A DNA stretch of 64,000 bases. It comes from Mobula hypostoma. Its lineage: Eukaryota. The position numbers were made by a program, and so were the translations under genes. Shown here one piece after another: positions 11,681-62,400 of the stretch; the stretch's first letter is position 1, and every line of letters begins with the position of its first letter. The notes beneath the pieces were generated by a model. The model was not told the origin of the DNA. It ran no database searches and saw nothing but the letters and a program-made list of their open reading frames with translations. The stretch spans positions 60,700,001 through 60,764,000 of the forward strand of contig NC_086108.1 in the NCBI RefSeq assembly GCF_963921235.1. The letters run 5' to 3'.

Positions 11681-13075
11681 CTATCTAGTGGAATGCCGCA
11701 GGAATCGGTGCTGGGTCTGTTGTTTGTCACCTGTATCAATGATCTGGATGATAATGTAGTTAACTGGATCAGAAAATTTGCAGATGACACCAAGGTGAGG
11801 GTGTAGTGTACAGCAAAGGCTATCAGAGCTTGGAGCGATATGGACCAGCTGGAAAAATGGTCTGAAAAATAGCAAAAGGAATTTAGTGCAGACAGTGCAA
11901 GGTGTTGCACTTCGGTAGGACCAACTAGGGTAGGTCTTACATTGTGGATGGTAGGGCTCTGAAGAGTGCTGTAGAATAGAGGGATCTGGGAATTTAGTCT
12001 CATAATTCATTGAAAGTGGCATCACACATAGGTAGGGTCACAAAGGAAGCTTTTGGCACATTGGGCTTCATAAATCAAAGTATTGAGTACAGGATGTTAC
12101 GTTGAAGTTGTATAAGATATTGGTGAAGCCTTATTTGGGGTATTGCATGCAGCTTTGATCACCTACCTACAGGGAAGATGTAAATAAGCCTGAAATAGAG
12201 TACAGAGAAAATTTACAAGGATGTTGCCAGGACTGGAGGGCCTGAGTTACAAGGAAAAATTGAGTAAGTTAGGACTTCATTCCTTGGAATGTAGAAGATT
12301 GAAAGGAGATTTGATAGAGTTATACAAAACTATTAGGTGTATAGATAAGTTAAATACAAGGAAGCTTTTTCCACTGTGGTTGGGTGGGACTACAACTAGA
12401 GGTCATGAAAGGTGAAAAGTTTGAAGGAAACGTGAGGGGAAACTTCTTCATTCAGAGGGTCGTGAGAGTGTAGAATGAGTTGCCAGCACAAGTGGTGCAT
12501 CTGAGCTTGATTTCAAAGATTAAGAGAAGTTTGGATAGGTACATGGATGGTAGGGTATGGAGAGCAATGGACCTGGTGGTGCAGGTCGATGGGAGTACCC
12601 AGTTTAAGTGGGTCGGCAAAAGTGAATGGGTAGTTGGATGAGTGGGAAGCTTTTAAAATCCAACAAAAGGCAACTAAAAAGGCCATAAGAAGGGAAAAGA
12701 TGAAATATGAGGACAGGCTAGCCAATAATACCAAAGTAGAATACCAGAAGTTTTTCAGTTATATAAAGAGTAAAAGGAAAGTGAGAGTTGACATTGGACC
12801 ACTGGAAAATGTTGCTGCTGAGGTCGTAATGGAGGACAAAGGAATGGCAGAAAACTTAATGAGTGCTTTGCATCATTCTTCACTGTGGAAGTTCTCCGCT
12901 AGTGTCAGGAATGAGGAGTGAGTGCCATTGCCACTACAGAGGAAGAAGTGCTACGCAAACTCAAAGGTCATAACTTGGGCCAGATGGAGTACATCCCAGA
13001 GTCCTGAGAGAGGTTGCTGAAGACAGAGTGTATGCATTGGTCATGATCTTTCAAGAATCACTTGATTCTGACATG

Positions 13076-13168
13076 TCCTGACGAAGGGTCTCGGCCTGAA
13101 ACGTCGACTGCGCCTCTTCCTAGAGATGCTGCCTGGCCTGCTGCGTTCACCAGCAACTTTGATGTGTG
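13076..13168 (+). mobile_element. 93-bp hammerhead-containing PLE-derived insertion with 14-bp TSD
   Basis: ttgattctgacatg is repeated at 13062-13075 and 13169-13182. The insert interrupts the CR1 DSxMVxEDW codons. Confidence 0.92.
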
Positions 13169-13877
13169 TTGATTCTGACATGGTCCTGGAGGACTGGAAG
13201 ATTGCAAATGTGACCTCACTCTTTAAGAAGGGAGGAAGGCAAAAGAGAGGAAATGATAGGCTAGTTAGCCTAACCTCAGTGGTTGGGAAAATGTTGGAGT
13301 CTATTATTAAGGATGAGGTTTCAAGGTAGATGGAGACTAATGATAAAATAAGTGAAAGTCAGCGTGGTTTCTGTGAAGGGAAATCTTGCCTAACCAATTT
13401 GTTAGAGTTCTTCGAGGAAGCAGTGGGGACAAAGGAGAGGCGGTGGATATCATTTACTTGGATTTTCAGAAGGTGTTTGATAAGGTGCCATACATGAGGC
13501 TGCTTAACAAGATAAAAACCTTTGGCGTTCCAGGAAAAATACTGGCATGGTTAGCGGAATGGCTGACAGGCAGAAGGCAGTGAGTGGGAATAAACAGGGC
13601 CTTTCTGGTTGGTTGCCGGTGACTAGAGGTGTTCCTCAGGTATTGGAATTGCAACTTTTCACATTATTTGTCAATGATTTAGATAGTGAAATTGATGGCT
13701 ATGTGGCAAAGTTTGTGGATGATACGAAGATAGGTGAAGGGGTAGATAGTGTTGAGGAAGCAATGTGACTGCAGCAGGACTTAGACAAATTGGATGAATA
13801 AGCAAAATGGTGGCAGATGGAATAGAGTTGGGAAATGTATGATAATGCATTTGGTAAAAGGAACAATAGTGTGGATT

Positions 13878-14387
13878 TAAAAACGCAAACACGAGGAAAT
13901 CTGCAGATGCTGGAATTTCAAACAACACACATAAAAGTTGCTGGTGAACGCAGCAGGCCAGGCAGCATCTATAGGAAGAGGTACAGTCGACGTTTCAGGA
14001 CGAGACCCTTCGTCAGGACTAACTGAAAGAAGAGTTAGTAAGAGATTTGAAAGTGGGAGGGGGAGGGGGAGATCCAAAATGATAGGAGAAGGCAGGAGGG
14101 GGAGGGATGGAGCCGAGAGCTGGACAGTTGATTGGCAAAAGGGATATGAGAGGATCATGGGACAGGAGGCCTAGGGAGAAAGAAAAAGGGGAAGGGGGGA
14201 AAAAACTAGAGGATGGGCAAGGGATATAGTGAAGAGGACAGAGGGAGAAAAAGGAGAGGGAGAAAAAGGAGAGAGAGAAAAAGAATGTGTGTATATAAAT
14301 AAATAATGGATGGGGTACGAGTGGGAGGTGGGGCATTAGCGGAAGTTTGAGAAGTCAACGTTCATGCCATCAGGTTGGATTTGAGTT
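13878..14387 (-). mobile_element. 5'-truncated PLE (related subfamily) with 13-bp TSD
   Basis: aatagtgtggatt at 13865-13877 and 14388-14400; hammerhead at 13985-14020; end of the GIY-YIG ORF near 14336-14380. Confidence 0.9.
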
Positions 14388-17559: not shown

Positions 17560-18390
17560 GTGGGAAGATAAGGCTTTCCTTTCAAGGACGTCAGAGGAGT
17601 CCTCCTCCTTCAAAGAATGCAGTTTCTTTTCTGCCAGCATTGATGCTGCCCTCACCTGCACCTCTATTTCCAGGACATCTGCACTCAGCCACTGCCTTAA
17701 CATCAATAGTGTTTCTCTTGTCCTCACCTACCATGAGCTGCATCCAAAACATCATTCTCCACAACTCCTGCCATCTTCACAGGATCCTATCACCAAATAC
17801 ATCTTTACCTCCCCCCATTCTCCACTTTTCCCAGGGATCACTCCTTCTGTAATTCGTCCCTCCCCACTAATCTCCCTTATGGCACATATCCCTGCAAGTG
17901 ACAGAAATGCCCATTCCAATATGTCAGTCCATGGCCTACTCTTTTACCACGATGAGGCCCCTTTCAGGGTGAAGGAGCAACACCTCATAATCCATCCAGA
18001 TAGCCTCCAAGTTGATAGCATGAACATCCGTTTCTGCTTCCAGTAATTTTTCCCATCCCCCTTCCCTCTTATTCTACTCCTCACTCTAGTCTCTTACCTC
18101 TTCTCTGCACCTGCCTATAACATCTCCCTGATGCCCCTCCTTTCCTTTCTCCTATGGTCTGCACTTCTCTCCGATCAGATCCCTTCTTCCTCAGCCCTTT
18201 ACCTTTCCCATCCACCTGGCTTCGCCTTCCAGCTTGTCTTCCTTCCCCTCTCTCCACCTTTTCATTCTGGCATTTTCCCCCTTCCTTTCCAGTCCTGAAG
18301 AAGGGCCTTGGCTCAAAACTTTGACTGTTTGTTCATTTCTATAGATGCTGCTTGACCTGCTGAGTTCCTCCAGCATGTTGTGTAAGTTGC
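17560..18390 (+). mobile_element. Old degenerate PLE (RT thumb, GIY-YIG remnant, degenerate hammerhead near 18291-18327)
   Basis: Collinear by eye with 49260-50430, e.g. gaaggagcaacacctcata, gatagcatgaacatc, agtcctgaagaaggg. Confidence 0.75.
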
Positions 18391-18696
18391 TCAGGAGAAA
18401 AATCATTTTATGCTTGACTAGACAAACTGTACTGTCCTTTAGTCTGTTAATGCTAATCGCTAAAATAGCTGCCCATGCCAAATACCAAAGAAGGTTCAGC
18501 TTGCATCAGCCTGAAATAATAATAGGATATCAGGTGGAAATATAACTCTGGAGAGGGCACAGAACGATCGCCATGTACAGCTATTCATCAGAAGCTACTA
18601 TTCACCACTCATCAAGGGGCAGACATTCTTCAAAGTTCTTTTTTGCAGAGGAACAGCACAAAGCAAGACAATCCTCATATTTATACTATTGGTTAC

Positions 18697-40813: not shown

Positions 40814-43195
40814 TATAGCAATGGAATTAAATACATAAAATAGCCATACTGGAGAAAACTAGGGAGATGAACATGACATAATCAAAAAGACACTATCTAA
40901 GGTAGACTTATTAGTCACAATACCTCCCATAAAATTTACTGCACACTGACACAAATATTGTATATTAATAATGCTGCTCTGATGTTTCAAAGAAGCCAAA
41001 TGGTAAATTCACGCTTCAATAATATAAACGTACATCAGTTTATCCACAGAAGATATTGAACTAACGTTAGTGCAGAGCCATTCCACCATACTTAATGATG
41101 ATTTAGCAAATCCAGCAAAACTACTGTCATTGGGTAAGGGAAAAGCTGAGCTGTCTGTGGTGGACACACCCCAGCAGTAGTGGTGTGCATGTATGAATTC
41201 TTCTTGAAGAGGTAACCGAATCTTTGGATAAAGCCAGTAGATAATATCAAGAACATTATGGAAGAAGGAACGGCTCTTGTGAGATGACACAACCAGGATT
41301 CAATTGTGACCATGGATAGTATCTGCCTGGAATTTGCACATTCTACCTGTGACCATGTGCACTTCCTCCGGATGCTTTGCTTTCCTCCTATATTACACAA
41401 ACACGTGGGTCGGTTGGTTTACTGGCCACTGTAAATTGACACCAATGTGCAGATGACTGAGTAGAATCTTGAGCAAATTGATAGTTATAAATAAAATGGG
41501 ATTAATGTAGAATTAGTGAAATAGATCATGGCTGATGTAGACTAAATGGGCTGAAGGGCCCATTTCTGTGCCACATCTATCTAAGACTTCATTAATAAAT
41601 GTGCTCAAAGGGTATTTAATCAAGTTGAAGCTCAAGAAATTGAAGGACAGTTATTGAGGTGATAGTTCTGACACCGTACGCAGGAGAAAATGGAGTCTGT
41701 GCTCACTGGCAGGCACTCTAAACCAGCATGTGGCTCATGGAAACCCAAAGGTCTGCTTCAGTCTCAGAACAATTCATTTTATCAATTAATATCTTGGCTG
41801 GTGGGTTATAGAGGCATATAGCCAATTTTCTCAGTAATATGCAAATGACACTTATTAGGCATAAAATTACAAAAATGTTAATATATTAAGTAAATGGAAA
41901 AACTCCTAAACAAATAGATTTCAAAAGTGACAAAGATGATCATGTTCTGCCCACAGTGGAACGCTAGTAAATAGTTTCTAAATGGTGAAAAGCTAAAACT
42001 GGTTTGAATCCAACAAAACTGAGGAATCAATAGCCACAGGTTACTAAAATCCCACAGATTGATAAAGCGAGATGATTTCTAAAGTATGGGGTAGGAGGGT
42101 GGCATTGACTTGGCTACACTTGGAGGGTTGTGGGTTGCACCCTTTAGAATGGATATATTATTTCTGAAATGATTACTCACACAGGTTGTGTAAAGTGAAA
42201 CTTGAACACCCAGGTTTTAATATAGGAGAAATTACACAAACTCGTGATGAATATCTTGGAAATATGTAAAATAGAAATTACACAAACTGGTGCTAAATAT
42301 GCAGGAATTTTGTAAATCAGGAGAAATTACATTAACCAGTGATGAGTATCCTGAAATTTTGTAAACTAAGGAGTGATTTGATCCAAGTTTATAAATTACA
42401 GGGAATACTAAAAAGCAATTTTTTTCCCACAGGTTGGAGAAACTATGGCTGGGATCACTGTTCAAAAAACAAAATCAGGATGGTCCTATTAGCAGTGAAT
42501 CTAGGAAGACTTCAATACTGAAAGGATGATGGCAGTTTGTGATCCTTCTCCCCAGCCTGCAGTAAATGTAAGAATGCCACAGCATTGTCAACCAAAGGTA
42601 AACAGGCATTAAGGAAAAAAGCAGGTATGCTGTAAACGCCACTTTTCAGTTGTGATTTCGCTGAGCAACAGAACAGACTCATGACATGGGATAAATATGG
42701 TAAAATATGTACCTTAACAAATACAATACGTTGATTAAAGACACATTAACCCAAGCACCCTCCCAATCGATGAGTAGTAAGATTTTAATTCACAGCAACA
42801 AAGCTTCACTCACATTCCTTAGGGAAAAGCAAGGTAGGATATTATAATTGATAAGAATGCTGTATTTTTAATCATCAATTATTTGATTTTCTTAAGTTAT
42901 GCCTACTTTCTCTCTGCGTGTAAAAGATGGACATTTCTAACCCAAACTTTTAGTCATATGGTTGACGCATGCATACACAGACTGGTGTTAATTGCTGCTT
43001 TAAGGGCATATAGCTGTTTCACTTCGTTTTTGTCATGCTTTAAACTGAGTCCAAAGCAGGGAAACATTGCCATATCAGTGCAAGCAGGACCCTGAGAAGA
43101 CATCCAGGTCTAAGGCTGTGCTGTATCAGTAAAATCCTGCCAACAGTTCAGATCAACAAGCAAATGCCTTGGACTTGATATCAAAGTCAAATATA

Positions 43196-45505
43196 AACAA
43201 CAGGAATTCTGTAGATGCTGGAAATTCAAGCAACATACATCAAAGTTGCTGGTGAACGCAGCAGGCCAAGCAGCATCTATAGGAAGAGGCGCAGTCGACG
43301 TTTCAGGCCGAGACCCTTCGTCAGGACTAACTGAAGGAAGAGTGAGTAAGGGATTTGAAAGCTGGAGGGGGAGGGGGAGATGCAAAATGATAGGAGAAGA
43401 CAGGAGGGGGAGGGATAGAGCCGAGAGCTGGACAGGTGATAGGCAAAAGGGGATACGAGAGGATCATGGGACAGGAGGTCCGGGAAGAAAGACGGGGGGG
43501 GGGGGGTGACCCAGAGGATGGGCAAGAGGTATATTCAGAGGGACAGGGGGAGAAAAAGGAGAGTGAGAGAAAGAATGTGTGCATAAAAATGAGTAACAGA
43601 TGGGGTACGAGGGGGAGGTGGGGCCTTAGCGGAAGTTAGAGAAGTCAATGTTCATGCCATCAGGTTGGAGGCTACCCAGACGGAATATAAGGTGTTGTTC
43701 CTCCAACCTGAGTGTGGCTTCATCTTTACAGTAGAGGAGGCCGTGGATAGACATGTCAGAATGGGAATGGGATGTGGAATTAAAATGTGTGGCCACTGGG
43801 AGATCCTGCTTTCTCTGGCAGACAGAGCGTAGATGTTCAGCAAAGCGGTCTCCCAGTCTGCGTTGGGTCTCGCCAATATATAAAAGGCCACATCGGGAGC
43901 ACCGGACGCAGTATATCACCCCAGTCGACTCACAGGTGAAGTGTTGCCTCACCTGGAAGGACTGTTTGGGGCCCTGAATGGTGGTAAGGGAGGAAGTGTA
44001 AGGGCATGTGTAGCACTTGTCCCGCTTACACGGATAAGTGCCAGGAGGGAGATCAGTGGGGAGGGATAGGGGGGACGAATGGACAAGGGAGTTGCGTAGG
44101 GAGCGATCCCTGCGGAATGCAGGGGGGGGGGAGGGAAAGATGTGCTTAGTGGTGGGATCCCGTTGGAGGTGGCGGAAGTTATGGAGAATAATATGTTGGA
44201 CCCGGAGGCTGGTAGGGTGGTGAGGACCAGGGGAACCCTATTCCTAGTGGGGTGGCGGTAGGATGGAGTGAGAGCAGATGTACGTGAAATGGGGGAGATG
44301 CGTTTAAGAGCAGAGTTGATAGTGGAGGAAGGGAAGCCCCTTTCTTTAAAAAAAGAAGACATCTCCCTCATCCTAAAATGAAAAGCCTCATCCTGAGAGC
44401 AGATGCGACGGAGACGGAGGAATTGCGAGAAGGGGATGGCGTTTTTGCAAGAGACAGGGTGAGAAGAGGAATAGTCCAGATAGCTGTGAGAGTCAGTAGG
44501 CTTATAGTAGACATCAGTGGATAAGCTGTCTCCAGAGACAGAGACAGAAAGATCTAGAAAGGGGAGGGAGGTGTCGGAAATGGACCAGGTAAACTTGAAG
44601 GCAGGGTGAAAGTTGGAGGCAAAGTTAATAAAGTCAACGAGTTCTGCATGCGTGCAGGAAGCATGCACTGATCCCCACTGATCTCCCTCCTGGTTCTTAT
44701 CCGTGTAAGCGGAACAAGTGCTACACATGCCCTTACACTTCCTCCCTTACCACCATTCAGGGCCCCAAACAGTCCTTCCAGGTGAGGCAACACTTCACCT
44801 GTGAGTCGACTGGGGTGATATACTGCGTCCGGTGCTCCTGATGTGGCCTTTTATATTGGCGAGACCCGACGCAGACTGGGAGACCGCTTTGCTGAACATC
44901 TACGCTCTGTCCGCCAGAGAAAGCAGGATCTCCCAGTGGCCACACATTTTAATTCCACATCCCATTCCCATTCTGACATGTCTATCCACGGCCTCCTCTA
45001 CTGTAAGGATGAAGCCACACTCAGGTTGGAGGAACAACACCTTATATTCCGTCTGGGTAGCCTCCAACCTGATGGCATGAACATTGACTTCTCTAACTTC
45101 CGCTAAGGCCCCACCTCCCCCTCGTACCTCATCTGTTACTCATTTTTTTTGCACACATTCTTTCTCTCACTCTCCTTTTTCTCCCTCTGCCCCTCTGAAT
45201 ATACCTCTTGCCCATCCTCTGGGTCACCACCCCCCCCCCCCGTCTTTCTTCCCGGACCTCCTGTCCCATGATCCTCTCGTATCCCCTTTTGCCTATCACC
45301 TGTCCAGCTCTCGGCTCTATCCCTCCCGCTCCTGTCTTCTCCTATTATTTTGCATCTCCCCCTCCCCCTCCAGCTTTCAAATCCCTTACTCACTCTTCCT
45401 TCAGTTAGTCCTGACGAAGGGCCTCGGCCTGAAACGTCGACTGCGCCTCTTCCTATAGATGCTGCTTGGCCTGCTGCGTTCACCAGCAACTTTGATGTAT
45501 GTCGC
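43196..45505. mobile_element. Fold-back Penelope-like composite, copy 1 (long arm minus 43196-44663; short arm plus 44672-45505)
   Basis: 15-bp TSD tcaaagtcaaatata (43181-43195 and 45506-45520). GIY-YIG remnants in both orientations; hammerheads at 43293-43328 (-) and 45407-45442 (+). Confidence 0.95.
45407..45442 (+). ncRNA. Minimal type I hammerhead ribozyme motif (representative of at least 8 copies)
   Basis: Stem I agtc/gact, core CTGACGA, stem II agg..cct, GAAAC directly followed by GTC (palindromic ACGT, loop-less stem III). Other copies: 1828-1863+, 2104-2139-, 13075-13109+, 13985-14020-, 43293-43328-, 48219-48254-, 50335-50370+. Confidence 0.88.
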
Positions 45506-47611
45506 TCAAAGTCAAATATATTTACTTTCTTCCTATCAATAAAAATGTGTTTTCTGTCTTATTAATTAATAAAGCATTATTATGTTGTTGTTGATCATCT
45601 TAATGCTGACAGTGGGAAAGGAAAAATTTGGTGATTCTTAGGTCAATAAACTGACTGGATAATGGAACTTGAATCTTACTTGCATTTATAAAAACAGACC
45701 TTAAACTGAATGCAAAACGTTTACAGGATGTAGTTAATATTGGTATAGCCAGCATCTAATGCCTAATATCAATTAGTCATAGTCACAGAAAAGTACAGCA
45801 CAGAAATAGGCTATTCAGCCCATCTAGTCCTTGTAAAATTGTTTCAACTACCTACTCCCATTGACCTGCAGCCTTCCATAGCCCTCCATCAATGTACCTA
45901 TCCAAACTTCTCTTAAATTTTGAAATTGAGCTCACATGCACCACTTGCATTGGCAGCTCGATCCACACTCTCACCACCCTCTGAGTGAAGAAGTTTCCCC
46001 TTAAAATTTTCACCTTTCACCCTTAATCCATGACCTTTAGTTGTAGTCCCACACAAGCTCAGTGGAAAGTCTGCTTGCATTTACCCTATCTATACCCCTC
46101 ATAATTTTGTATACCTCTATCAAATCTCCCCTCAATCTTCTACGTTCCAAAGAATAAAGCCCAACTAACTCGGGTCTACCAGACCCAGCAACATCTTTGC
46201 AAATTTTCTCTGTACTCTTTCAATCTTATTTACCTCTTTCCTGTAGGTGGGTGACCAAAACTGAACACAATACTCCAAATTAGGCCCCATCAATGTCTTA
46301 TACAACTTCAACATAACATCCTATCTCCTGTACTCAACACTTTGATTTATGAAGATCAATGCACCAAAAGCTTTCTTTGTGACCCTATCTATCTATGACG
46401 TTACTTTCAATGAATTATGGACCTGAATTTCCAGATCCCTTTGTTCTACCACACTCCTCAGTGCCCTACCGTTCACTGTAAAAACTACCCTGGTTGGACC
46501 AATTGAAGTGCACACATCACACTTGTCTGCATTAAATTCCATATGCCATTTTTCAGCATATTTTTCCAGCTGGTCCTGATCCTTCTGCAAGCCATGATAG
46601 TCTTCCTCGCTGTCCACTACACCCCCAATCTTCCTGTCATCCACAAATTTGCCGATCCAATTAACCACATTATCATCAAAATCATTGATATAGCTGACAA
46701 AAAGCAACAGACCCAGCGTCAATCACTGCAGTACTCCACTAGTCACAGGTCTCCAGTCAGAGAGGCAACCATCGACTACCACTCACTGGCTTCTCCTACA
46801 AAGCCAATGTTTAATCCAATTTACTACCTCATGCAGGACCTTGTCAAATGCCTTGCTAAAGTCCATGTAGGCAACATCTACTGCCTTCCCTTCATCAACT
46901 TTCCTGGTAACTTCCTTGAAAAACTCTAAGACTGATTAGACACAACCTACCACACACAAAGCCATGCTCACTATCTTTGATGAGTCCATGTCTATCCAAA
47001 TACTCATATCTTGTCCCTTAAAATACCTTCCAGTAACTTTCCCACTACTGATGTTAATGTCACCGTCCAATAACTTCCTGGATTATTTTTAGAGCCTTTC
47101 TTAAACAGCAGAACAGCTTTGGCTATCCTTCAATCACCTGGTACCTCACTTGTCACCAAGGATGATTTGAACATCTCTGCTAGGGCACCAGCAATTTCTG
47201 CATTTGCCTCCAGCAGGGTCCAAGGGAACACCTTGTCAGGCCCTGGGGATTTATCCACCCCGAGTTACCTCAAGACAGCAAACACCTCCTCCTCTGTAAT
47301 CTGTATAGGGTCCATGAAGTTGATGCCATTTTGCCACATTTCTATAGACTCTCTGTTAGTGGTCACTAACCTTTTTAAGCCCAAGATCCCCTACCTCGAC
47401 TTTAGTGAAAGGCAAGACCTACCTACTAAATCGTTTATAGAGAAAACACAGCCCAGATTGTACTTCCAATTTGAGGCCTTTTATTTGGGCTAATTGTATT
47501 TGAATTACACAAAATACTTTTGTCAAACTTTCAAATTAGTTCAAACAAGAAAACACCGTAACTAGCATATCAAACAGGCCATAGCTGTCTTTCTTTAAGA
47601 ATATTACAATA

Positions 47612-48150
47612 CATAGACATACTTTATTGATCCCGGGGGAAATTGAGTTTCGTTACAGCTGCATCAACCAAGAATAGAGCATAAATATAGCAATACAAAA
47701 ACCACAAACAATCAAACAACAATATGCAAACTATGCCAGATGGAAATAAGTCCAGGACCAGCCTATTAGCTCAGTGTGTCTGACCCTCCACAGGAGGAGC
47801 TGCAAAGTTCAATGGCCACAGGCAGGAACAACCTCCCATAACACCCAGTGCTGTATCTCAGTGGAATATGGCCGGAGTCCAACAGTAAAAAGTTCAATAT
47901 CCGGGCTACAAACATGTTGCTCGAGAAAATAAGACCAGGATTGCACCACCCGTTGTTAACCAGAACAGCAAGCCTCCAACTCCTTTACGCTTACCACTCT
48001 CAGTGCACTTCCAGTCAGCACGAACTGTCTGGAAGCCCTCCATGGAAAAGTTTCGGTCGGGTATGTCCACATGCAGCCAGGTTTCAGTAAAACACATAAC
48101 ACTGCTCTCCTGAAATGTTCTCTGACTCCTGGCTAGCGCCGTCAACTCCT
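47612..48150 (-). mobile_element. Rex1-like LINE derivative (endonuclease remnant fused to 3' end) inside the hAT element
   Basis: ORF 47906..48145 has MCFTETWL...GFQTVRAD...GKRKG.GG; (tatg)-like tail near 47610. Confidence 0.7.
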
Positions 48151-48187
48151 TTAATTCACACCTTTAATTCTAAGTTTCATTATTTAG

Positions 48188-50466
48188 CAGGCCAGGCAGC
48201 ATCTGTAGGAAGAGGTGCAGTCGACGTTTCAGGCCGAGACCCTTCGTCAGGACTAACTGAAGGAAGAGTGAGTAAGGGATTTGAAAGCTGGAGGGGGAGG
48301 GGGAGATCCAAAATGATTGGAGAAGACAGGAGGGGGAGGGATGGAGTCAAGAGCTGGACAGGTGATAGGCAAAAGGGGATACGAGAGGATCAAGGGACAG
48401 GAGGTCTGGGAAGAAAGACAAGGGTGGGGGGGACCCAGAGGATGGGCAAGAGGTATATTCAGAGGGACAGAGGGAGAAAAAGGAGAGTGAGAGAAAGAAT
48501 GTGTGTATAAAAATAAGTAACAGATGGGGTACGAGGGGGAGGTGGGGCCTTAGCGGAAGTTAGAGAAGTCGATGTTCATGCCATCAGGTTGGAGGCTACC
48601 CAGACGGAATATAAGGTGTTGTTCCTCCAACCTGAGTGTGGCTTCATCTTTACAGTAGAGGAGGCCGTGGATAGACATGTCAGAATGGGAATGGGATGTG
48701 GAATTAAAATGTGTGGCCACTGGGAGATCCTGCTTTCTTTGGCGGACAGAGCGTAGATGTTCAGCAAAGCGGTCTCCCAGTCTGCGTCGGGTCTCGCCAA
48801 TATAAAAGGCCACATCAGGAGCACCGGACGCAGTATATCACCCCAGTCGACTCACAGGTGAAGTGTTGCCTCACCTGGAAGGACTGTTTGGGGCCCTGAA
48901 TGGTGGTAAGGGAGGAAGTGTAAGGGCATGTGCAGCACTTGTTCCGCTTACACGGATAAGAGCCAGGAGGGAGATCAGTGGGGATCAGTGCATGCTTCCT
49001 GCACGCATGCAGAACTCGTTGACTTTATTAACTTTGCCTCCAACTTTCACCCTGCCCTCAAGTTTACCTGGTCCATTTCCGACACCTCCCTCCCCTTTCT
49101 AGATCTTTCTGTCTCTGTCTCTGGAGACAGCTTATCCACTGATGTCTACTATAAGCCTACTGACTCTCACAGCTATCTGGACTATTCCTCTTCTCACCCT
49201 GTCTCTTGCAAAACCGCCATCCCCTTCTCGCAATTCCTCCGTCTCCGCCGCATCTGCTCTCAGGATGAGGCTTTTCATTCTAGGACGAGTGAGAAGTCTT
49301 CCTTTTTTAAAGAAAGGGGCTTCCCTTCCTCCACTATCAACTCTGCTCTTAAACGCATCTCCCCCATTTCACGTACATCTGCTCTCACTCCATCCTCCCA
49401 CCACCCCACTAGGAATAGGGTTCCCCTGGTCCTCACCTACCACCCCACCAGCCTCCGGGTCCAACATATTATTCTCCGTAACTTCCGCCACCCCCAACGG
49501 GATCCCACCACTAAGCACATCTTTCCCTCCCCCACTCTCTCTGCATTCCGTAGGAATCGCTCCCTACGCAACTCCCTTGTCCATTCGTCCCCCCCATCCC
49601 TCCCCACTGATCTCCCTCCTGGCACTTATCCGTGTAAGCGGAACAAGTGCTACACATGCCCTTACACTTCCTCCCTAACCACCATTCAGGGCCCCAAACA
49701 GTCCTTCCAGGTGAGGCAACACTTCACCTGTGAGTCGACTGGGGTGATATACTGCGTCCGGTGCTCCCGATGTGGCCTTTTATATATTGGCGAGACCCGA
49801 CGCAGACTGGGAGACCGCTTTGCTGAACATCTATGCTCTGTCCGACAGAGAAAGCAGGATCTCCCAGTGGCCACACATTTTAATTCCACATCCCATTCCC
49901 ATTCTGACATGTCTATCCACGGCCTCCTCTACTGTAAAGATGAAGCCACACTCAGGTTGGAGGAACAACACCTTATATTCCGTCTGGGTAACCTCCAACC
50001 TGATGGCATGAACATCGATTTCTCTAACTTCCGCTATGGCCCCACCTCCCCCTCGTACCCCATCTGTTACTTATTTTTATGCACACATTCTTTCTCTCAC
50101 TCTCCTTTTTCTCCCTCTGTCCCTCTGAATATACCTCTTGCCCAACCTCTGGGTCCCCCCTCCCTCCCTGTCTTTCTTCCCGGACCTCCTGTCCCATGAT
50201 CCTCTCGTATCCCCTTTTGCCTATCACCTGTCCAGCTCTCGGCTCTATCCCTCCCGCTCCTGTCTTCTCCTATTATTTTGCATCTCCCCCTCCCCCTCCA
50301 GCTTTCAAATCCCTTACTCACTCTTCCTTCAGTTAGTCCTGATGAAGGGTCTCGGCCTGAAACATCGACTGCACCTCTTCCTACAGATGCTGCCTGGCCT
50401 GCTGCGTTCACCAGCAACTTTGATGTGTGTTGCTTGAATTTCCAGCATCTGCAGTATTCCTGTTGT
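48188..50466. mobile_element. Fold-back Penelope-like composite, copy 2 (short arm minus from 48188 to about 48983; long arm plus from about 48992 to 50466)
   Basis: 13-bp TSD tttcattatttag (48175-48187 and 50467-50479). Same junction as copy 1 in reverse complement; hammerheads at 48219-48254 (-) and 50335-50370 (+). Confidence 0.95.
48928..50199 (+). pseudogene. Chimeric PLE ORF: RT C-terminus/thumb, Cys-rich linker, GIY-YIG endonuclease (Neptune-like)
   Basis: LPFLDL, VYYKPTDSHSYL, PCKRNKCYTC, VIYCVRCSRCGLLYIGET...RFAEH. Begins after the RT catalytic motif; the native TAA reads TAT at 50035-50037. Confidence 0.85.
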
Positions 50467-50526
50467 TTTCATTATTTAGTTTTATTTCAACATGAAAAAT
50501 AAATGAATAAAAATTGACTGTTGCAC

Positions 50527-57333: not shown

Positions 57334-59897
57334 CAGTGCCTATAAGAAGTATTCACTCCCCTTGGAAGTTTTCATGTTTATTGTTTTATAACACTGAATC
57401 ACAGTGAATTTAATCTGGCTTTTTTTTTGACAGTGATCAACAGAAAAAGACTTTTTCATGTCAAAATGAAAACAGATCTCTACAAAGTGCTCTAAATTAA
57501 TTACAAATATAAAACTCAAAATAATTGATTGCATAATTATTCACCCTCTTCAAGCCAGTATTTAGTAGATGCATCTTTGGTAGCAATTACAGCCTTGAGA
57601 CTGTGGATCTGGACACATCTGTACCCTGCAATTTTTCCCATTCTTCTTACAAAACTGCTCAAGCTCTGTCAGATTGCTTTGGGATCATAAGTGAGCAGCC
57701 CTTTTCAAGTCCAGCCACAACTTCTCAATTGGATTGAGGTCTGGACTCTGATTTGGCCACTCCAGAGCATTAACTTCCTTGTTTTTAAGTCATTCCTGTG
57801 TAGGTTTGGCTTTATGATTGGGGTCATTGTCTGGCCGGAAAACAAATCTTCTCCTAAGTTGCAGTTCTCTTGCAGACTGCATCCAGTTTTCCTCCAGGAC
57901 TTCCCTGTATTTTGCTGCATTCATTTTACCCTCTACCTTCACAAGCCTTCCAGGCCCTGCTGCAGTGAAGCATCCCCACAGCGTGATGCAGCCACCACCA
58001 TGCTTCATGGCAGGGATGGTATGCTTTTGATGATGTACCATGTTTGGCTTATGCCAAACATAGCATTTAGTCTGATGACAAAAAGCTCAATTTTGGTTTC
58101 ATCAGACCATAGAATCTTCTTCCAGCAGACTTCATAGTCTCCCGCATGCCTTCTGGCAAACTTTAGTCAAGATTTCACATGAGTATTGTTTTCCCAATGG
58201 TGGCTTTCTCTTTGCTACTTTTCCATAAAGCTGCAACTGGTGAAGCACCCGGGCAACAGCTGTTGTGTGTGCAATCTCTCCCATCTCAGACACTGAAGCT
58301 TGGAACTCCTCCAAGAGTTGTCATAGGTCTCTTAGTGACCTCCCTCGCTAATCCTCTTCCTGCATGGTCACTCCGTTTTTGAGGACAGCGTGCTCTGGGC
58401 AGATTTACATCTGAGCCATAATAGAAACATAGAAAATAGGTGCAGGAGTAGGCCATTCGGCCCTTCGAGCCTGCACCGCCATTTATTATGATCATGGCTG
58501 ATCCTCCAACTCAGAACCCCGCCCCAGTCTTCCCTCCATACCCCCTGACCCCCGTAGCCACAAGGGCCATATCTAACTCCCTCTTAAATATAGCCAATGA
58601 ACTGGCCTCAACTGTTTCCTGTGGCAGAGAATTCCACAGATTCACCACTCTCTGTGTGAAGAAGTTTTTCCTAATCTCGGTCCTAAAAGGCTTCCCCTCT
58701 ATCCTCAAACTGTGACCCCTCATTCTGGACTTCCCCAACATCAGGAACAATCTTCCTGCATCTAGCCTGTCCAATCCCTTTAGGATCTTATACGTTTCAA
58801 TCAGATCCCTCCTCAATCTTCTAAATTCCAACGAGTACAAGCGCAGTTCATCCAGTCTTTCTTCATATGAAAGTCCTGCCATCCCAGGAATCAATCTGGT
58901 GAACCTTCTTTGTACTCCCTCTATGGCAAGGATGTCTTTCCTCAGATTAGGGGACCAAAACTGCACACAATACTCCAGGTGTGGTCTCACCATGGCCTTG
59001 TACAACTGCAGTAGTACCTCCCTGCTCCTGTACTCGAATCCTCTCGCTATAAATGCCAGCATACCATTCGCCTTTTTCACCGCCTGCTATACCTGCATGC
59101 CCACTTTCAATGACTGGTGTATAATGACACCCAGGTCTCGTTGCACCTCCCCTTTTCCTAATCAGCCACCATTCAGATAATAATCTGTTTTCCTATTTTT
59201 GCCACCAAAGTGGATAACTTCACATTTATCCACATTAAATTGCATCTGCCATGAATTTGCCCACTCACCCAACCTATCCAAGTCACCCTGCATCCTCTTA
59301 GCATCCTCCTCACAGCTAACACTGCCACTAAATCTTTCTATTTCTTGTTGATTGACTTAACTGTACTCCAAGGGATATTCAGTGACTTGGAAATTTTCTT
59401 ATATTCATCTCCTGACTTGTGCTTTCCAAAAACCTTTTTTGCAATGTTGCCAGAAGTGTTCTCTTGTTCTTCCTTGTGTAGTTTTTGCCAGGATACTGAC
59501 TCACCAACAGTTGGACCTTCACCAACAGCTGGAACTTCTAGATACAGATGTATTTTTACTACAGTCAATTGAAACACCTTGACTGCATCCAGGTCTCCAC
59601 AAGCAGATCTCCATTTAACTAATTATGTGACATCTGAAACCAATTGGCTGCACCAGTGATGATTTGGTGTGTCATATTAAAGGGGGGGGGGAATATTTAT
59701 GAAATCAATCATTTTGTATTTTATATTAGTAATTAATTTAGATCACTTTGTAGAGATCTAGTTTCAATTTTACACAAAAGTCTTTTTCTGTTGATCAGTG
59801 TTAAAAAAAAAACAAATTAAATCCACTGTGATTCAATGTTGTAAAACAATAAAGCATGAAAACTTCCAAGGTGAGTGAATACTTTTCATAAGCACTG
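57334..59897 (-). mobile_element. Tc1-family transposon with ~210-bp TIRs and decayed transposase
   Basis: ta|cagtgcctataagaagtattcac ... gtgaatacttttcataagcactg|ta; remnants KHGGGCITLWGCF, DNDPNH and YKKISKSLNIPWSTVKSI. Confidence 0.92.
58420..59328 (-). mobile_element. Young 5'-truncated CR1 inserted in the Tc1 element
   Basis: ORF 58511..59080 is the CR1 ORF2 C-terminus; tail tttctatgtttctat. Confidence 0.92.
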
Positions 59898-60674
59898 TAC
59901 ACTGCACACAAAAAGTAGATACAGATATGTACAACACAGAAAAAAAGCCCCTTGGCTTATGCTTGTCCATGCCAAATAAGATGTATACTTAATTCAGTCC
60001 TACTTCCCGGCACCTGGCCCATATCCCTAACTCATGTTACCCATTTACCTGCCTACATACAGGACTTCTTAAATCTACCTAATATACCTACCTCAACCAC
60101 TTCCTCTGACACAGCTGTTCCTGTATACCTACCACTCGTTGTGTTAAAAACTTGCCTCTCAGGTTCTTACTATTCCTTTCATCTCTTACTTTAAAACTAT
60201 GTCCTTTAGTTTTCGATTCCCTAACCCTGGAAAAAAGACCACTCACCTTGCCTTTGCCCTTATGATTTTACGTACCTCAAAGAGATAACCCCTCAGTTTC
60301 CAGCCCATCTAACCTCTGCCTACAATTCAGCTCCTTGAGTCCTGGCGACATCCTTGTACATCTTGTTTACACTCCTGTATACGTTTCATCACATCCTTCC
60401 TGTCACAGGCTGATCAAAACTGAACACAATATTGTAAGTGTGACCTCACTAATGTCTTATATAATCATAACATAACTTCCCAACTTCTATATTTAATGCC
60501 CTGCTGACTGATGAATACCAGAATGTCAAAAGCCTTCTTCACTGCCATATCTGCATATGAGTCCACTTTAGGGGAATTATACACCTGGACTCCACAGTCC
60601 TTCTGTTCTACAACAGTACCCAGGGCTCAATGCAAACATCCTATCTTGATTTGTCCTTTCAAAATGTAACACTT

Positions 60675-62400
60675 TTGTCTGCCAGTGCCACTTTTGAGGA
60701 CATAAATAATCTTCCAGAAATAGTAGGGGACTGAGGGTCTCGTGAGATGGAGGAACTGAGGGAAACATGTGCTAGTAGGGAAGTGATGTTAGGTAAATTG
60801 AAGGGATTAAAGGCAGATAAATCCTAAGGGCCAGATGGTCTGCATCCCAGAGTGCTTAAGGAAGTAGCCCAAGAAATAGTGGATGCACTAGTGATAATTT
60901 TTCAAAACTCTTTAGATTCTGGACTCGTTCCTGAGGATTGGAGGGTGGCTAATGTAACCCCGCTTTTTAAAAAAGGAGGGAGAGAGAAACCAGGGAATTG
61001 TAGACTGGTTAGCCTGACATCGGTGGTGGGGAAAATGCAAGAGTCAGTTATCAAAGATGTGATAACAGCACATTTGGAAAGCAGTGAAATCATCAGACAA
61101 ATTCAGCATGGATTTGCGAAAGGAAAATCATGTCTGACAAACCTCATAGAATTTTTTGAGAATGTAGCTAGTTGAGTGGATAGGGGAGAACCAGTGGATG
61201 TGGTATATTTGGATTTTCAAAAGGCTTTTGACAAGGTCCCACACAGGAGATTAGTGTGCAAACTTAAAGCACATGGTATTGGGGGTATGGTATTGATGTG
61301 GAAAGAGAATTGGTTGGCAGACAGGAAGCAAAGGGTGGGAATAAACGGGACCTTTTCAGAATGGCAGGTAGTGACTAGTGGGGTACCGCAAGGCTCAGTG
61401 CTGGAACCCCAGTTGTTTACAATATATATTAATGACTTAGACGAGGGAATTAAATGCAGCATCTCCAAGTTTGCGGATGACACGAAGCTGGGCGGCAGTG
61501 TTAGCTGTGAGGAAGATGCTAAGAGTATGCAGGGTGAATTGGATAGGTTAGGTGAGTGGGCAAATTCATGGCAGATGCAATTTAATGTGGATAAATGTGA
61601 GGTTGTCCACTTTGGTGGCAAGAACATGAAAACAGATTATTATCTCAATGGTGGCCGATTAGGAAAAGGGGAGGTGCAACGAGACCTGGGTGTCATTATA
61701 CACCAGTCATTGAAAGCGGGCATGCAGGTACAGCAGGCCGTGAAAAAGACAAATGGTATGCTGGCATTCATAGCAAGAGGATTTCAGTACAGGAGCAGGG
61801 AAGTACTACTGCAGTTGTACAAGGCCTTGGTGAGACCATACCTGGAGTATTGTGTGCAGTTTTGGTCCCCTAATCAGAGGAAAGACATTCTTGCCATAGA
61901 GGGAGTACAAAGAAGGTTCACCAGATTGATTCCTGGGATGGCAGGACTTTCATATGATGAAAGACTGGATCGACTAGGCTTGTACTCGCTGGAATTTAGA
62001 AGATTGAGGGGGGATCTGATTGAAACATATAAAATTCTAAAGGGATTGGACAGGCTCGATGCAGGAAGATTGTTCCCGATGTTGGGGAAGACCAGAATGA
62101 GGGGTCACAGTTTGAGGATAAAGGGGAAGCCTTTTAGGACCAAGACGAGGAAAAACTTCTTCACACAGACAGTGGCAAATCTGTGGAATTCTCTGCCACA
62201 GGAAACAGTTGAGGCCAGTTCATTGGCTATATTTAAGAGGGAGTTAGATATGGCCCTTGTGGCTAAAGGGATCAAGGAGTATGGAGAGAAGGCAGGTATA
62301 GGGTTCTGAGTTGGATGATCAGCCAGCCATGATCATACTGAATGGCGGTGCCGGCTTGAAGGGCCGAATGGCCTACTCCTGCACCTATTGTCTATGTTTC
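60675..62400 (+). mobile_element. 5'-truncated CR1 (RT with FADD) inserted in an older minus-strand CR1 (about 59920-60674 and 62401-62960)
   Basis: ORFs 60852..61175 and 61176..62309; acactt duplicated at 60669-60674 and 62401-62406. Confidence 0.9.

Follow-up and report, generated by a model that had tools for sequence, protein, structure and literature searches.

In L1 twin priming, two cDNAs start from two nicks during a single event, which leaves an inverted 5′ segment within one target-site duplication. The second primer lands upstream there and little is duplicated, whereas the two arms of each Penelope-like unit described here begin close to the 3′ end and duplicate about 800 bp. Inverted insertions with a one-sided tail of 30-40 bp are described for endonuclease-bearing Penelope-like elements in passages of two papers (PMC8557442, PMC8969392), the first of which calls the formation of these inverted structures undefined. 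Our units resemble those elements in having an adjoining inverted 5′-truncated copy with a tail at one end, a C-terminal GIY-YIG domain and a CX2-5CxxC linker as in Neptune and Nematis. They differ in having no direct partial tandem and in being two insertions with one junction, and the blocks of by-arm, by-copy and crosswise sites that we report are not discussed in those passages. For the Poseidon element of Anolis (PAc), the relevant sections of PMC11167929 describe AT-rich targets, nicking and extension of both strands in vitro, and two tail-defining start sites separated by the tail, which fits the two 3′ end classes found here. PAc belongs to another clade, however; inverted junctions and second-strand joining were not reconstituted there, the steps after priming are unvalidated according to those sections, and one of our ends fits neither start class.

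For Pen2 and Pen2a of Adineta vaga, the passages on these elements in PMC3846280 describe a 9-10 bp target-site duplication that encloses inverted repeats, with the inverted arm shorter than the direct one. Junction palindromes are read as self-priming, and one derivative has the arrangement of another copy. The arms there are pseudo-LTRs of ~200 bp, whereas ours are 800 bp and include the endonuclease region, and those passages contain no arm-by-arm variants. Blocks of identity between nearby repeats or arms are yielded both by non-allelic gene conversion, described for LTRs (PMC4921805), and by quasipalindrome template switching, described for 18-bp reporters in sections of PMC7202029. In the mostly open-access literature that our search covered, we found no report of Penelope-like insertions that share a junction or whose variants sort by arm and, in the texts consulted, no whole inversion junction copied between two Penelope insertions. 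A pair that has a common junction and whose variants are phased offers a natural experiment on the cDNA-joining step.

The window, a 64-kb stretch of DNA, holds two such units, copy 1 (43196-45505) and copy 2 (48188-50466), in opposite orientation and 2.7 kb apart. Each is a head-to-head, 5′-truncated Penelope-like insertion. We refer to the long and short arms as L1 and S1 in copy 1 and L2 and S2 in copy 2; arm position 1 is window position 49601. Arm limits of L1, S1 and S2 are from BLAST, alignment and the 3′ ends. The features are as follows.

43181..43195, + strand: left target-site duplication of copy 1, 15 bp, AT-rich (exact 15-nt repeat at 43181 and 45506).
43196..44062, - strand: L1, part common to the short arm, with the GIY-YIG region, 3′ untranslated part and full tail.
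44063..44663, - strand: middle of copy 1, C-terminal coding part of the RT, 5′-truncated just past the RT YIDD motif.
44664..44671, no strand: junction of copy 1, 8-nt filler.
44672..45505, + strand: S1, inverted short arm, which stops 33 nt before the 3′ end of the long arm.
45407..45442, + strand: candidate minimal hammerhead-like motif in S1, its core judged by eye against the consensus; also at 43293-43328 (-), 48219-48254 (-) and 50335-50370 (+).
45506..45520, + strand: right target-site duplication of copy 1.
48175..48187, + strand: left target-site duplication of copy 2, 13 bp, the last 2 nt of which also fit the element.
48188..48984, - strand: S2, inverted short arm, which stops 63-65 nt before the 3′ end of the long arm.
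48985..48992, no strand: junction of copy 2, with the 8-nt filler and the same breakpoints as copy 1.
48993..49600, + strand: middle of copy 2, C-terminal coding part of the RT.
49601..50466, + strand: L2, with a CX4CxxC linker, the GIY-YIG domain, 3′ untranslated part and full tail.
50467..50479, + strand: right target-site duplication of copy 2.

Each unit has its own target-site duplication (15 bp for copy 1, 13 bp for copy 2), both of which are intact, supporting integration of both units as single events. Two other family copies in the window have duplications of 13 and 14 bp. Segmental duplication was rejected because the flanks are unrelated and the target-site duplications differ, and a single crossover between the inverted units was rejected because it would have broken both duplications. 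Only the C-terminal part of the RT is present in the units, and the middle of copy 1 has a 4-nt deletion relative to copy 2. Contigs of runs X1 and X12 (the latter possibly RNA) have loose ends at 44663; the X1 consensus there reads as the upstream RT motif, YIDD.

Judged by their sequence, the units are Penelope-like insertions of the Neptune/Nematis type. In copy 2, the RT region is followed by a C-terminal GIY-YIG endonuclease (Pfam PF01541; E = 1.2e-4; 22.7 bits against a cut-off of 22.6). The frame at 48910-50199 contains VIYCVRCSRCGLLYIG and later histidines, as in the definition of endonuclease-bearing Penelope-like elements given in passages of PMC8557442; by the same definition, the linker CKRNKCYTC fits Neptune or Nematis and does not tell the two clades apart. 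Of the two inverted 5′-truncated neighbour copies, copy 1 (33 nt) fits a one-end tail of 30-40 bp and copy 2 (63-65 nt) is outside that range. A direct partial tandem (pseudo-LTR), which is typical of full-length insertions and not required in 5′-truncated copies, is absent inside either target-site duplication. An Rfam search of the whole 64 kb gave no match at gathering score, hammerhead included, and the fold of the hammerhead-like motif was not significant (z = -1.2).

The 3′ ends fall into two classes. L1, L2 and a copy at 2006-2649 end together, and a more diverged copy at 13879-14379 has nearly the same end point. The other class comprises S1, which lacks the last 33 nt of the long arm, and two unrelated fragments at 13075 and 1825, which lack 35-40 nt. 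S2, 63-65 nt short, is in neither class. The end of S1 is like the published second start of reverse transcription, and this favors two-ended priming, with a second priming on RNA, over snap-back by a fold-back that runs out.

The junction is common to both copies and identical to the base. Part of its 8-nt filler repeats the arm start, and part completes a 7-bp hairpin with the first bases of the long arm. In metagenome contigs, the exact junction motif had no match, and a protein search for related loci gave 593 pattern matches, none of them confirmed. Contigs of 4 of the 24 listed runs were placed on 44063-45600 (listed: 40 of 143 difference rows, 15 of 842 joints and 32 pieces). Run X4, from organism B, contains the right flank of copy 1.

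The original prediction was that in the outer 450 bp the two arms of one copy agree and differ from the other copy, while near the junction variants are specific to an arm and common to both copies. We found that this sorting is real but patchier. Of 12 motifs quoted in its support, 11 have exact matches in the long and short arm of the copy named and none in the arms of the other copy. The twelfth, “gggtgaccc”, is exact in L1 only, because S1 has an extra 3-nt unit beside a C run. A four-arm alignment bore out both kinds of variant, with six clean by-copy substitutions in the outer arm (416, 472, 569, 773, 784, and 794) and three by-arm events near the junction (24, 168, and a 2-nt indel at 181-182). 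Further by-copy sites lie at 556, at the edge of a C run, and at 827, where S2 has already ended. Positions 183-415 of this alignment hold no by-arm and no by-copy site. Agreement of the arms throughout the outer 450 bp did not hold: L1 and S1 are separated by 9 substitutions at 416-803, and L2 and S2 by 19.

In order of arm position, the informative sites fall into blocks of three by arm, four by copy, two crosswise, and three by copy. At the crosswise sites (656 and 674), S1 agrees with L2 and L1 with S2. At 646 and 681, S2 has the base of two outside copies, and L1, S1 and L2 have the other base. All 3 by-arm events lie inside all 7 by-copy sites (probability, 1/120), and there are only 4 runs among the 12 sites (p = 0.008). 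Patchy, age-dependent tracts had been proposed in advance as the sign of conversion; the patchiness is seen among these 12 sites and so favors conversion on those terms.

The by-copy sites are not only CpG changes, since the clean sites 472, 784 and 794 are non-CpG. When independent decay of four arms was simulated, at least three non-CpG by-copy sites arose in no more than 0.14% of 5000 runs under each of 4 rate settings. Recurrent CpG decay as the only cause was therefore rejected, and we concluded that by-copy sorting is more than chance. Both bases at the CpG sites 569 and 773 are common in read sets (other base, 42% and 64% in X1), and at the non-CpG site 472 each copy shares its base with one of two outside copies. 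The copy-1 alleles at 646, 681, 794 and 827 are in no outside copy within the window.

Divergence between the copies varies by zone. It is 4.7-6.0% in the outer arms and 0.8% across the junction, against 4.9% beside it at 49214-49600 (19 events in 387 nt). The arms differ from the unrelated copy at 2006-2649 by 3.6-5.4%, close to the values between copies in the outer arms and at 49214-49600; distances to it in zone 183-415 were left out because of a misaligned inverted tip. A heterogeneity scan gave p = 0.02-0.03 for any segment and p = 0.11 for the low segment, the boundaries of which were set after seeing the data. Averaged over the interior, the copies differ by 32 events in 1446 nt, or 2.2%, which equals the divergence of arms within a copy. 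Two candidate tracts emerged.

48572..49213, no strand: low-divergence stretch over the junction, candidate copied tract (5 differences from copy 1 in ~640 nt).
45242..45414, + strand: S1 stretch at arm positions 570-742, identical to L2 50170-50342.
50170..50342, + strand: L2 stretch identical to S1.

The second tract, overlooked in the original prediction, shows no difference between S1 and L2 in 173 nt, while copy 2's own arms, L2 and S2, differ at 9 of 173. Such identity has a chance of 0.005 at 3% divergence, which indicates exchange between these neighbors; the stretch is probably an inter-copy conversion tract with L2 as the recipient. A base private to S1 and L2 at 656 would be expected to give a G>C row, and none is among the difference rows listed for the 4 runs. 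Clipping of short contigs may account for this. Alternatively, the base at 656 may be widespread in the family, and the case for an S1-to-L2 tract would then be weaker.

The reading that we prefer, and hold at about even chances, is that two ordinary two-ended insertions arose from different RNAs and that the junction region was later copied as DNA between the neighbors. By analogy with the biochemistry of another clade, the endonuclease would cut the two strands of an AT-rich target with an offset of 13-15 bp. Reverse transcription would start from each nick close to the 3′ end of the element, and the two resulting cDNAs would be joined head to head. The ends of each copy would then carry the alleles of its own source RNA, giving the by-copy signal. 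The junction would have formed once, and it and at least 180 nt of short arm would have been copied from unit to unit at the DNA level, by gap repair off the neighbor while the second unit was inserting, or afterwards by gene conversion; this copying would give the by-arm signal. The four arms would have kept exchanging, with the second tract between S1 and L2. What the pair shows is a target-site duplication for each unit, a single junction, sites of three classes arranged in blocks, and two 3′ end classes; from these we infer different source RNAs, and DNA-level copying with its direction and timing. Separate source RNAs are favored by the by-copy alleles at 472, 569 and 773, which segregate in the family. 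DNA copying is favored by the 2.7-kb proximity, the uneven interior and the lack of any inner excess of arm divergence (copy 1, 4/180 inner versus 12/621 outer, p = 0.77; copy 2, 4/180 versus 23/619, p = 0.48; few sites, low power). Against this reading, the low segment alone is not significant, the interior mean fits one shared source, L1 and L2 differ at only 7 of 415 positions at arm 1-415, and the four copy-1 alleles named above are in no outside copy of the window. Late conversion also needs a recipient that was already long and head-to-head. As a weak control, a CR1-like inverted pair at 58424-62400, 2.2 kb apart and without a shared target-site duplication, remains 7% diverged. If the preferred reading is true, the pair shows only that neighboring copies swap sequence, whole junction included, and arm identity is a poor clock for such insertions.

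A possible though somewhat unlikely alternative is that the units were regenerated from source RNA that already bore the junction. In the transcribed source, an inverted segment would lie upstream of a truncated copy; the first cDNA would span the long arm, junction and inner short arm, and the outer short arm would be rebuilt each time. The second cDNA, primed at the other nick, might anneal to the first via the inherited inverted segment, which is unlikely; that the first cDNA folds back on itself, as originally proposed, is very unlikely. Regeneration would account for an identical junction in two separate insertions, for by-arm sites that stop at 182 and by-copy sites that start at 416, and for the match between the interior mean and arm divergence. 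An inverted copy beside a partial tandem is the usual layout in passages of PMC8557442, and a rotifer copy is proposed in passages of PMC3846280 to yield a derivative of the same arrangement. However, one source should give identical outer arms at birth, yet there are 7-8 by-copy sites, some of them family polymorphisms, while two sources that old should differ in the non-coding inner short arm, where only 4 differences in 415 nt are found. Of the snap-back proposal, the part that stands is that both outer ends of each copy trace to one source. Equality of short and long arm over the whole outer arm, which snap-back copying of the cDNA predicts, fails in copy 2 at the 9 sites noted within 570-742 and in copy 1 at 2 sites; later conversion could rescue it, at the cost of extra events. 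An old junction-bearing master was expected to leave more arm divergence inside, and neither copy shows such an excess. It was also expected to give even divergence between the copies across the inherited interior, for which the scan described above gave p = 0.02-0.03 for any segment and 0.11 for the low one. The depth of X1 contigs dips at the junction bin (0.70 million versus 1.56 and 2.46 million in the adjoining bins), although summed contig depth is not a copy number, and no junction-spanning piece is among the 32 pieces listed, which sets no bound given 310,448 further pieces. Finally, regeneration offers no explanation for the 2.7-kb spacing beyond chance or local hopping. We propose only tentatively, as rather unlikely, a non-autonomous fold-back Penelope derivative that would inherit its fixed junction and rebuild its two ends from RNA, with nick-primed cDNAs annealing via the inverted segment. 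Such an inherited center would imply a terminal-repeat regeneration cycle for Penelope-like elements and give a direct genomic readout of two-cDNA joining.

It is doubtful that retrotransposition moved the palindrome in its entirety, with one copy giving rise to the other or a common source to both. The by-copy sites would then be mutations of later date, carried between arms by gene conversion or by replication template switching on the imperfect palindrome. L1 and S1 (16/801) are indeed closer to each other than the copies are at 49214-49600 (19/387; p = 0.009), as if homogenized, but against the whole middle (20/616) the contrast is not significant (p = 0.17). In the E. coli reporters of PMC7202029, template switching turns imperfect palindromes into perfect ones, and the absence of the four copy-1 alleles from outside copies would fit new mutations. 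Both alleles at 472, 569 and 773 nevertheless occur elsewhere in the family, and the short arms end differently, with S1 at the second canonical end, which is not expected of a straight copy of a fixed palindrome.

An assembly or polishing artifact, in which reads of one unit were used for the other unit or the opposite arm, is highly improbable: four near-identical arms do lie within 7.3 kb and no placed read spans either unit, but differences private to each arm persist, the target-site duplications of the two units are intact, and an X1 contig covering 45478-45600 without a difference has the last 28 nt of S1, including copy-1 allele 827, and 95 nt of flank (3 letters below the bridge rule; X1 is possibly the source sample). 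Formation of the same junction twice at a sequence-guided hotspot is extremely improbable, since it would require the 8-nt filler to recur along with three changes in the short arm, of which one is a 2-nt deletion, and the junction hairpin that might guide it is not significant (z = 0.14).

In the middle of the units, 12 of 16 differences are non-synonymous. These differences therefore look like post-insertion decay and are no proof of two sources there.

Two fold-back copies of a Penelope-like element lie 2.7 kb apart in opposite orientation and are 96% identical across 2,310 nt (BLAST). In each, a long arm (L1 or L2; ~1,470 nt) meets an inverted short arm (S1 or S2; ~800 to 830 nt), 5′ end to 5′ end. 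Encoded in the long arm are the end of the reverse transcriptase (RT), a linker of sequence CKRNKCYTC, and a GIY-YIG domain. Contigs with the normal upstream continuation depart from the window sequence at 44663, where loose contig letters in sequencing run X1 correspond to the RT YIDD motif; the long arm is thus truncated directly after the catalytic motif. The family is very abundant in the sequencing runs compared (219,154 contigs in X1), with at least four further pieces in the window. The linker and CCHH motif would place the unit among Neptune- or Nematis-type elements, as defined in PMC8557442.

1825-1920, ~100-nt fragment, hammerhead-like motif alone, ending without a tail; terminal A run; 86 nt from the copy at 2006, the two lying tail to tail
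2006-2674, lone family copy, full tail, 5′-truncated at about arm position 223, with its own 25-nt inverted tip overlapping the truncation point; a target-site duplication was looked for and not found
13075-13174, ~100-nt fragment, hammerhead-like motif alone, no tail; 14-bp target-site duplication
13879-14379, more diverged family copy (85%), full tail, target-site duplication of 13 bp; served as an outside copy
17567-18391, remnants of a related Penelope-like element, old and decayed, 64 to 75% identical to the long arm
43196-45505, copy 1 (L1 and S1); 15-bp target-site duplication at 43181 and 45506
45875-46742 and 47906-48163, between the units, a CR1-like fragment (minus strand) and a fragment bearing an AP-endonuclease-like FTETWL motif
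48188-50466, copy 2 (L2 and S2); different, 13-bp target-site duplication at 48175 and 50467

Since the two units have their own target-site duplications and flanks unrelated to each other, each was separately integrated by the element's own machinery; two other family copies in the window have duplications of 13 and 14 bp. The junction breakpoints and an 8-nt filler are identical between the units. The filler duplicates part of the arm start and closes a 7-bp hairpin (not significant); we infer that this is compatible with template switching to a cDNA strand at the time the junction originated. As the inverted tip of the copy at 2006 shows, this family does generate new inversion junctions. 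Both the element and the head-to-head arrangement are already known; the unusual feature here is the shared center. In the literature searched, we found no report of shared junctions or arm-wise sorting, aside from an Adineta vaga derivative that repeats another copy's arrangement; that paper (PMC3846280) reads palindromes at such junctions as self-priming.

We aligned the four arms, numbering from window position 49601. Variants separating long from short arms fall at arm positions 24, 168, and 181-182, and variants separating copy 1 from copy 2 fall at 416, 472, 556, 569, 773, 784, and 794, as well as at 827, beyond the end of S2; no site is informative between 183 and 415. The motifs on which the original prediction relied were exact in both arms in 11 of 12 cases. 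The by-copy signal is real: three clean by-copy sites are non-CpG, which independent decay gives in at most 0.14% of simulations. The proposed sorting by copy outside and by arm inside is present, but the clean switch between them fails. At 656 and 674, S1 and L2 share one base, and L1, S2, and both outside copies (2006-2649 and 13879-14379) have the other; at 646 and 681, S2 agrees with the outside copies and the remaining arms have the other base. S1 and L2, direct repeats separated by 4.9 kb, do not differ in the 173 nt from 570 to 742, whereas L2 and S2 differ at 9 sites. A single conversion from S1 to L2 would account for all four sites. In order, the 12 informative sites form 4 runs (P = 0.008), and such blocks are the pattern expected of tracts. 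No G>C difference is among those listed for four sequencing runs, although one would be expected if the base at 656 were private; this counts against the conversion. Short contigs may have been clipped in this dense cluster of differences, hiding the base; alternatively, the allele is common and each arm combines sequence from several RNA templates.

Copy 1 and copy 2 differ at 5 positions in ~640 nt across the junction and at 19 in the next 387 nt; L1 and L2 differ at 7 positions in 415 nt of long arm. The divergence of the 387-nt stretch (4.9%) is close to the distance between unrelated family copies. However, 12 of 16 differences in the middle are nonsynonymous, and five copy 1 bases in this stretch are nearly absent from the family (~99% other base among the rows listed), so the stretch documents postinsertion decay. 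Either way, the junction-spanning sequence appears younger than what surrounds it. In the middle of copy 1 (44063-44663), six private or near-private coding-strand changes go from C to T, which may reflect the C-rich composition of that strand. The junction and three short-arm changes were passed between the two units or their sources. We give about an even chance to copying of the junction region at the DNA level from the neighboring unit, which explains the low junction divergence, the lack of inner excess between arms, the outer/inner contrast, and the proximity; the S1/L2 tract suggests that these neighbors exchange sequence. Four arms and some dozen informative sites underlie this argument.

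The original prediction was that the outer short arm may be re-copied from the long arm at each mobilization by snap-back. Regeneration from a junction-bearing source is a distinctly weaker candidate. Most of its weight lies on a version with two-ended priming, where the inherited inverted segment lets the second cDNA anneal to the first; this version is compatible with published layout and biochemistry. An old source passing through RNA should leave inner arms more diverged than outer arms, and they are not (4/180 versus 12/621 and 23/619; few sites). An inherited interior should differ evenly between copies; the heterogeneity seen is modest after correction (P = 0.02 to 0.03; low segment alone, 0.11). 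Moreover, 7 to 8 by-copy outer-arm differences are hard to reconcile, under a single source, with 4 in 415 nt of noncoding inner short arm.

L1, L2, and the copy at 2006-2649 have a common 3′ end point, and the copy at 13879-14379 ends about there; S1 ends 33 nt earlier, and the fragments at 13075 and 1825 end 35 to 40 nt earlier. This offset is the 30- to 40-bp tail described in PMC8557442, which PMC11167929 traces to two start points of reverse transcription, with nicking and extension on each of the two target strands. Priming of both nicks on RNA from one source would give both arms the same initial alleles, so the by-copy signal needs no regeneration cycle. S2 stops 63 to 65 nt short and overlaps the target by 2 nt; it matches neither start class and may be trimmed. 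At 569 and 773, each of the two bases is frequent in the sequenced family, and at 472 (non-CpG) each copy's base recurs in one of the outside copies, consistent with different sources for the two units; four copy 1 alleles absent from the outside copies in the window argue against this. Bases at 438, 701, and 822 common to all arms present (822 lies beyond the end of S2) are absent from both outside copies, which points to one sub-lineage; in X1, those at 438 and 701 are in the minority. On the 3′ side of the hammerhead-like motif, 50383-50463 folds as one long stem-loop (z = −1.0, not significant) with the tail as its 3′ strand and tail-less ends near the top of the stem-loop.

Whole-unit transposition followed by arm-to-arm homogenization appears unlikely, and it is doubtful that the junction is a propagating unit. 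Contig depth falls in the bin that holds the junction, which is therefore not the dominant family form, although hundreds of junction copies would escape detection; metagenome contigs scanned for the junction motif and related loci yielded nothing. An assembly artifact is very improbable: a 326-nt X1 contig matches 45478-45600 with 0 differences, in support of copy 1's right end and of one by-copy allele, although it overlaps the element by just 28 nt and X1 is possibly the source sample. A recurrent junction hotspot is the least credible explanation.

Internal skips recur in family contigs at 44754-44852 (97 nt; 7 contigs of X1) and 45004-45160 (155 nt; same AT-rich filler in X4 and X9), possibly as deleted subfamilies or shared old insertions. 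The unique right flank of copy 1 (45519-45600) has no coverage in X9 or X12 and is present with two differences in X4, from a second organism, where the orthologous site is therefore open to study. An inverted pair 2.2 kb apart (58424-59326 and 61494-62400), CR1-like 3′ ends, is 93% identical, versus ~80% to other copies; the pair shares no target-site duplication and probably represents two insertions of one subfamily. Upstream of copy 1, 42215-42368 holds three imperfect direct copies of a 46- to 49-nt unit.
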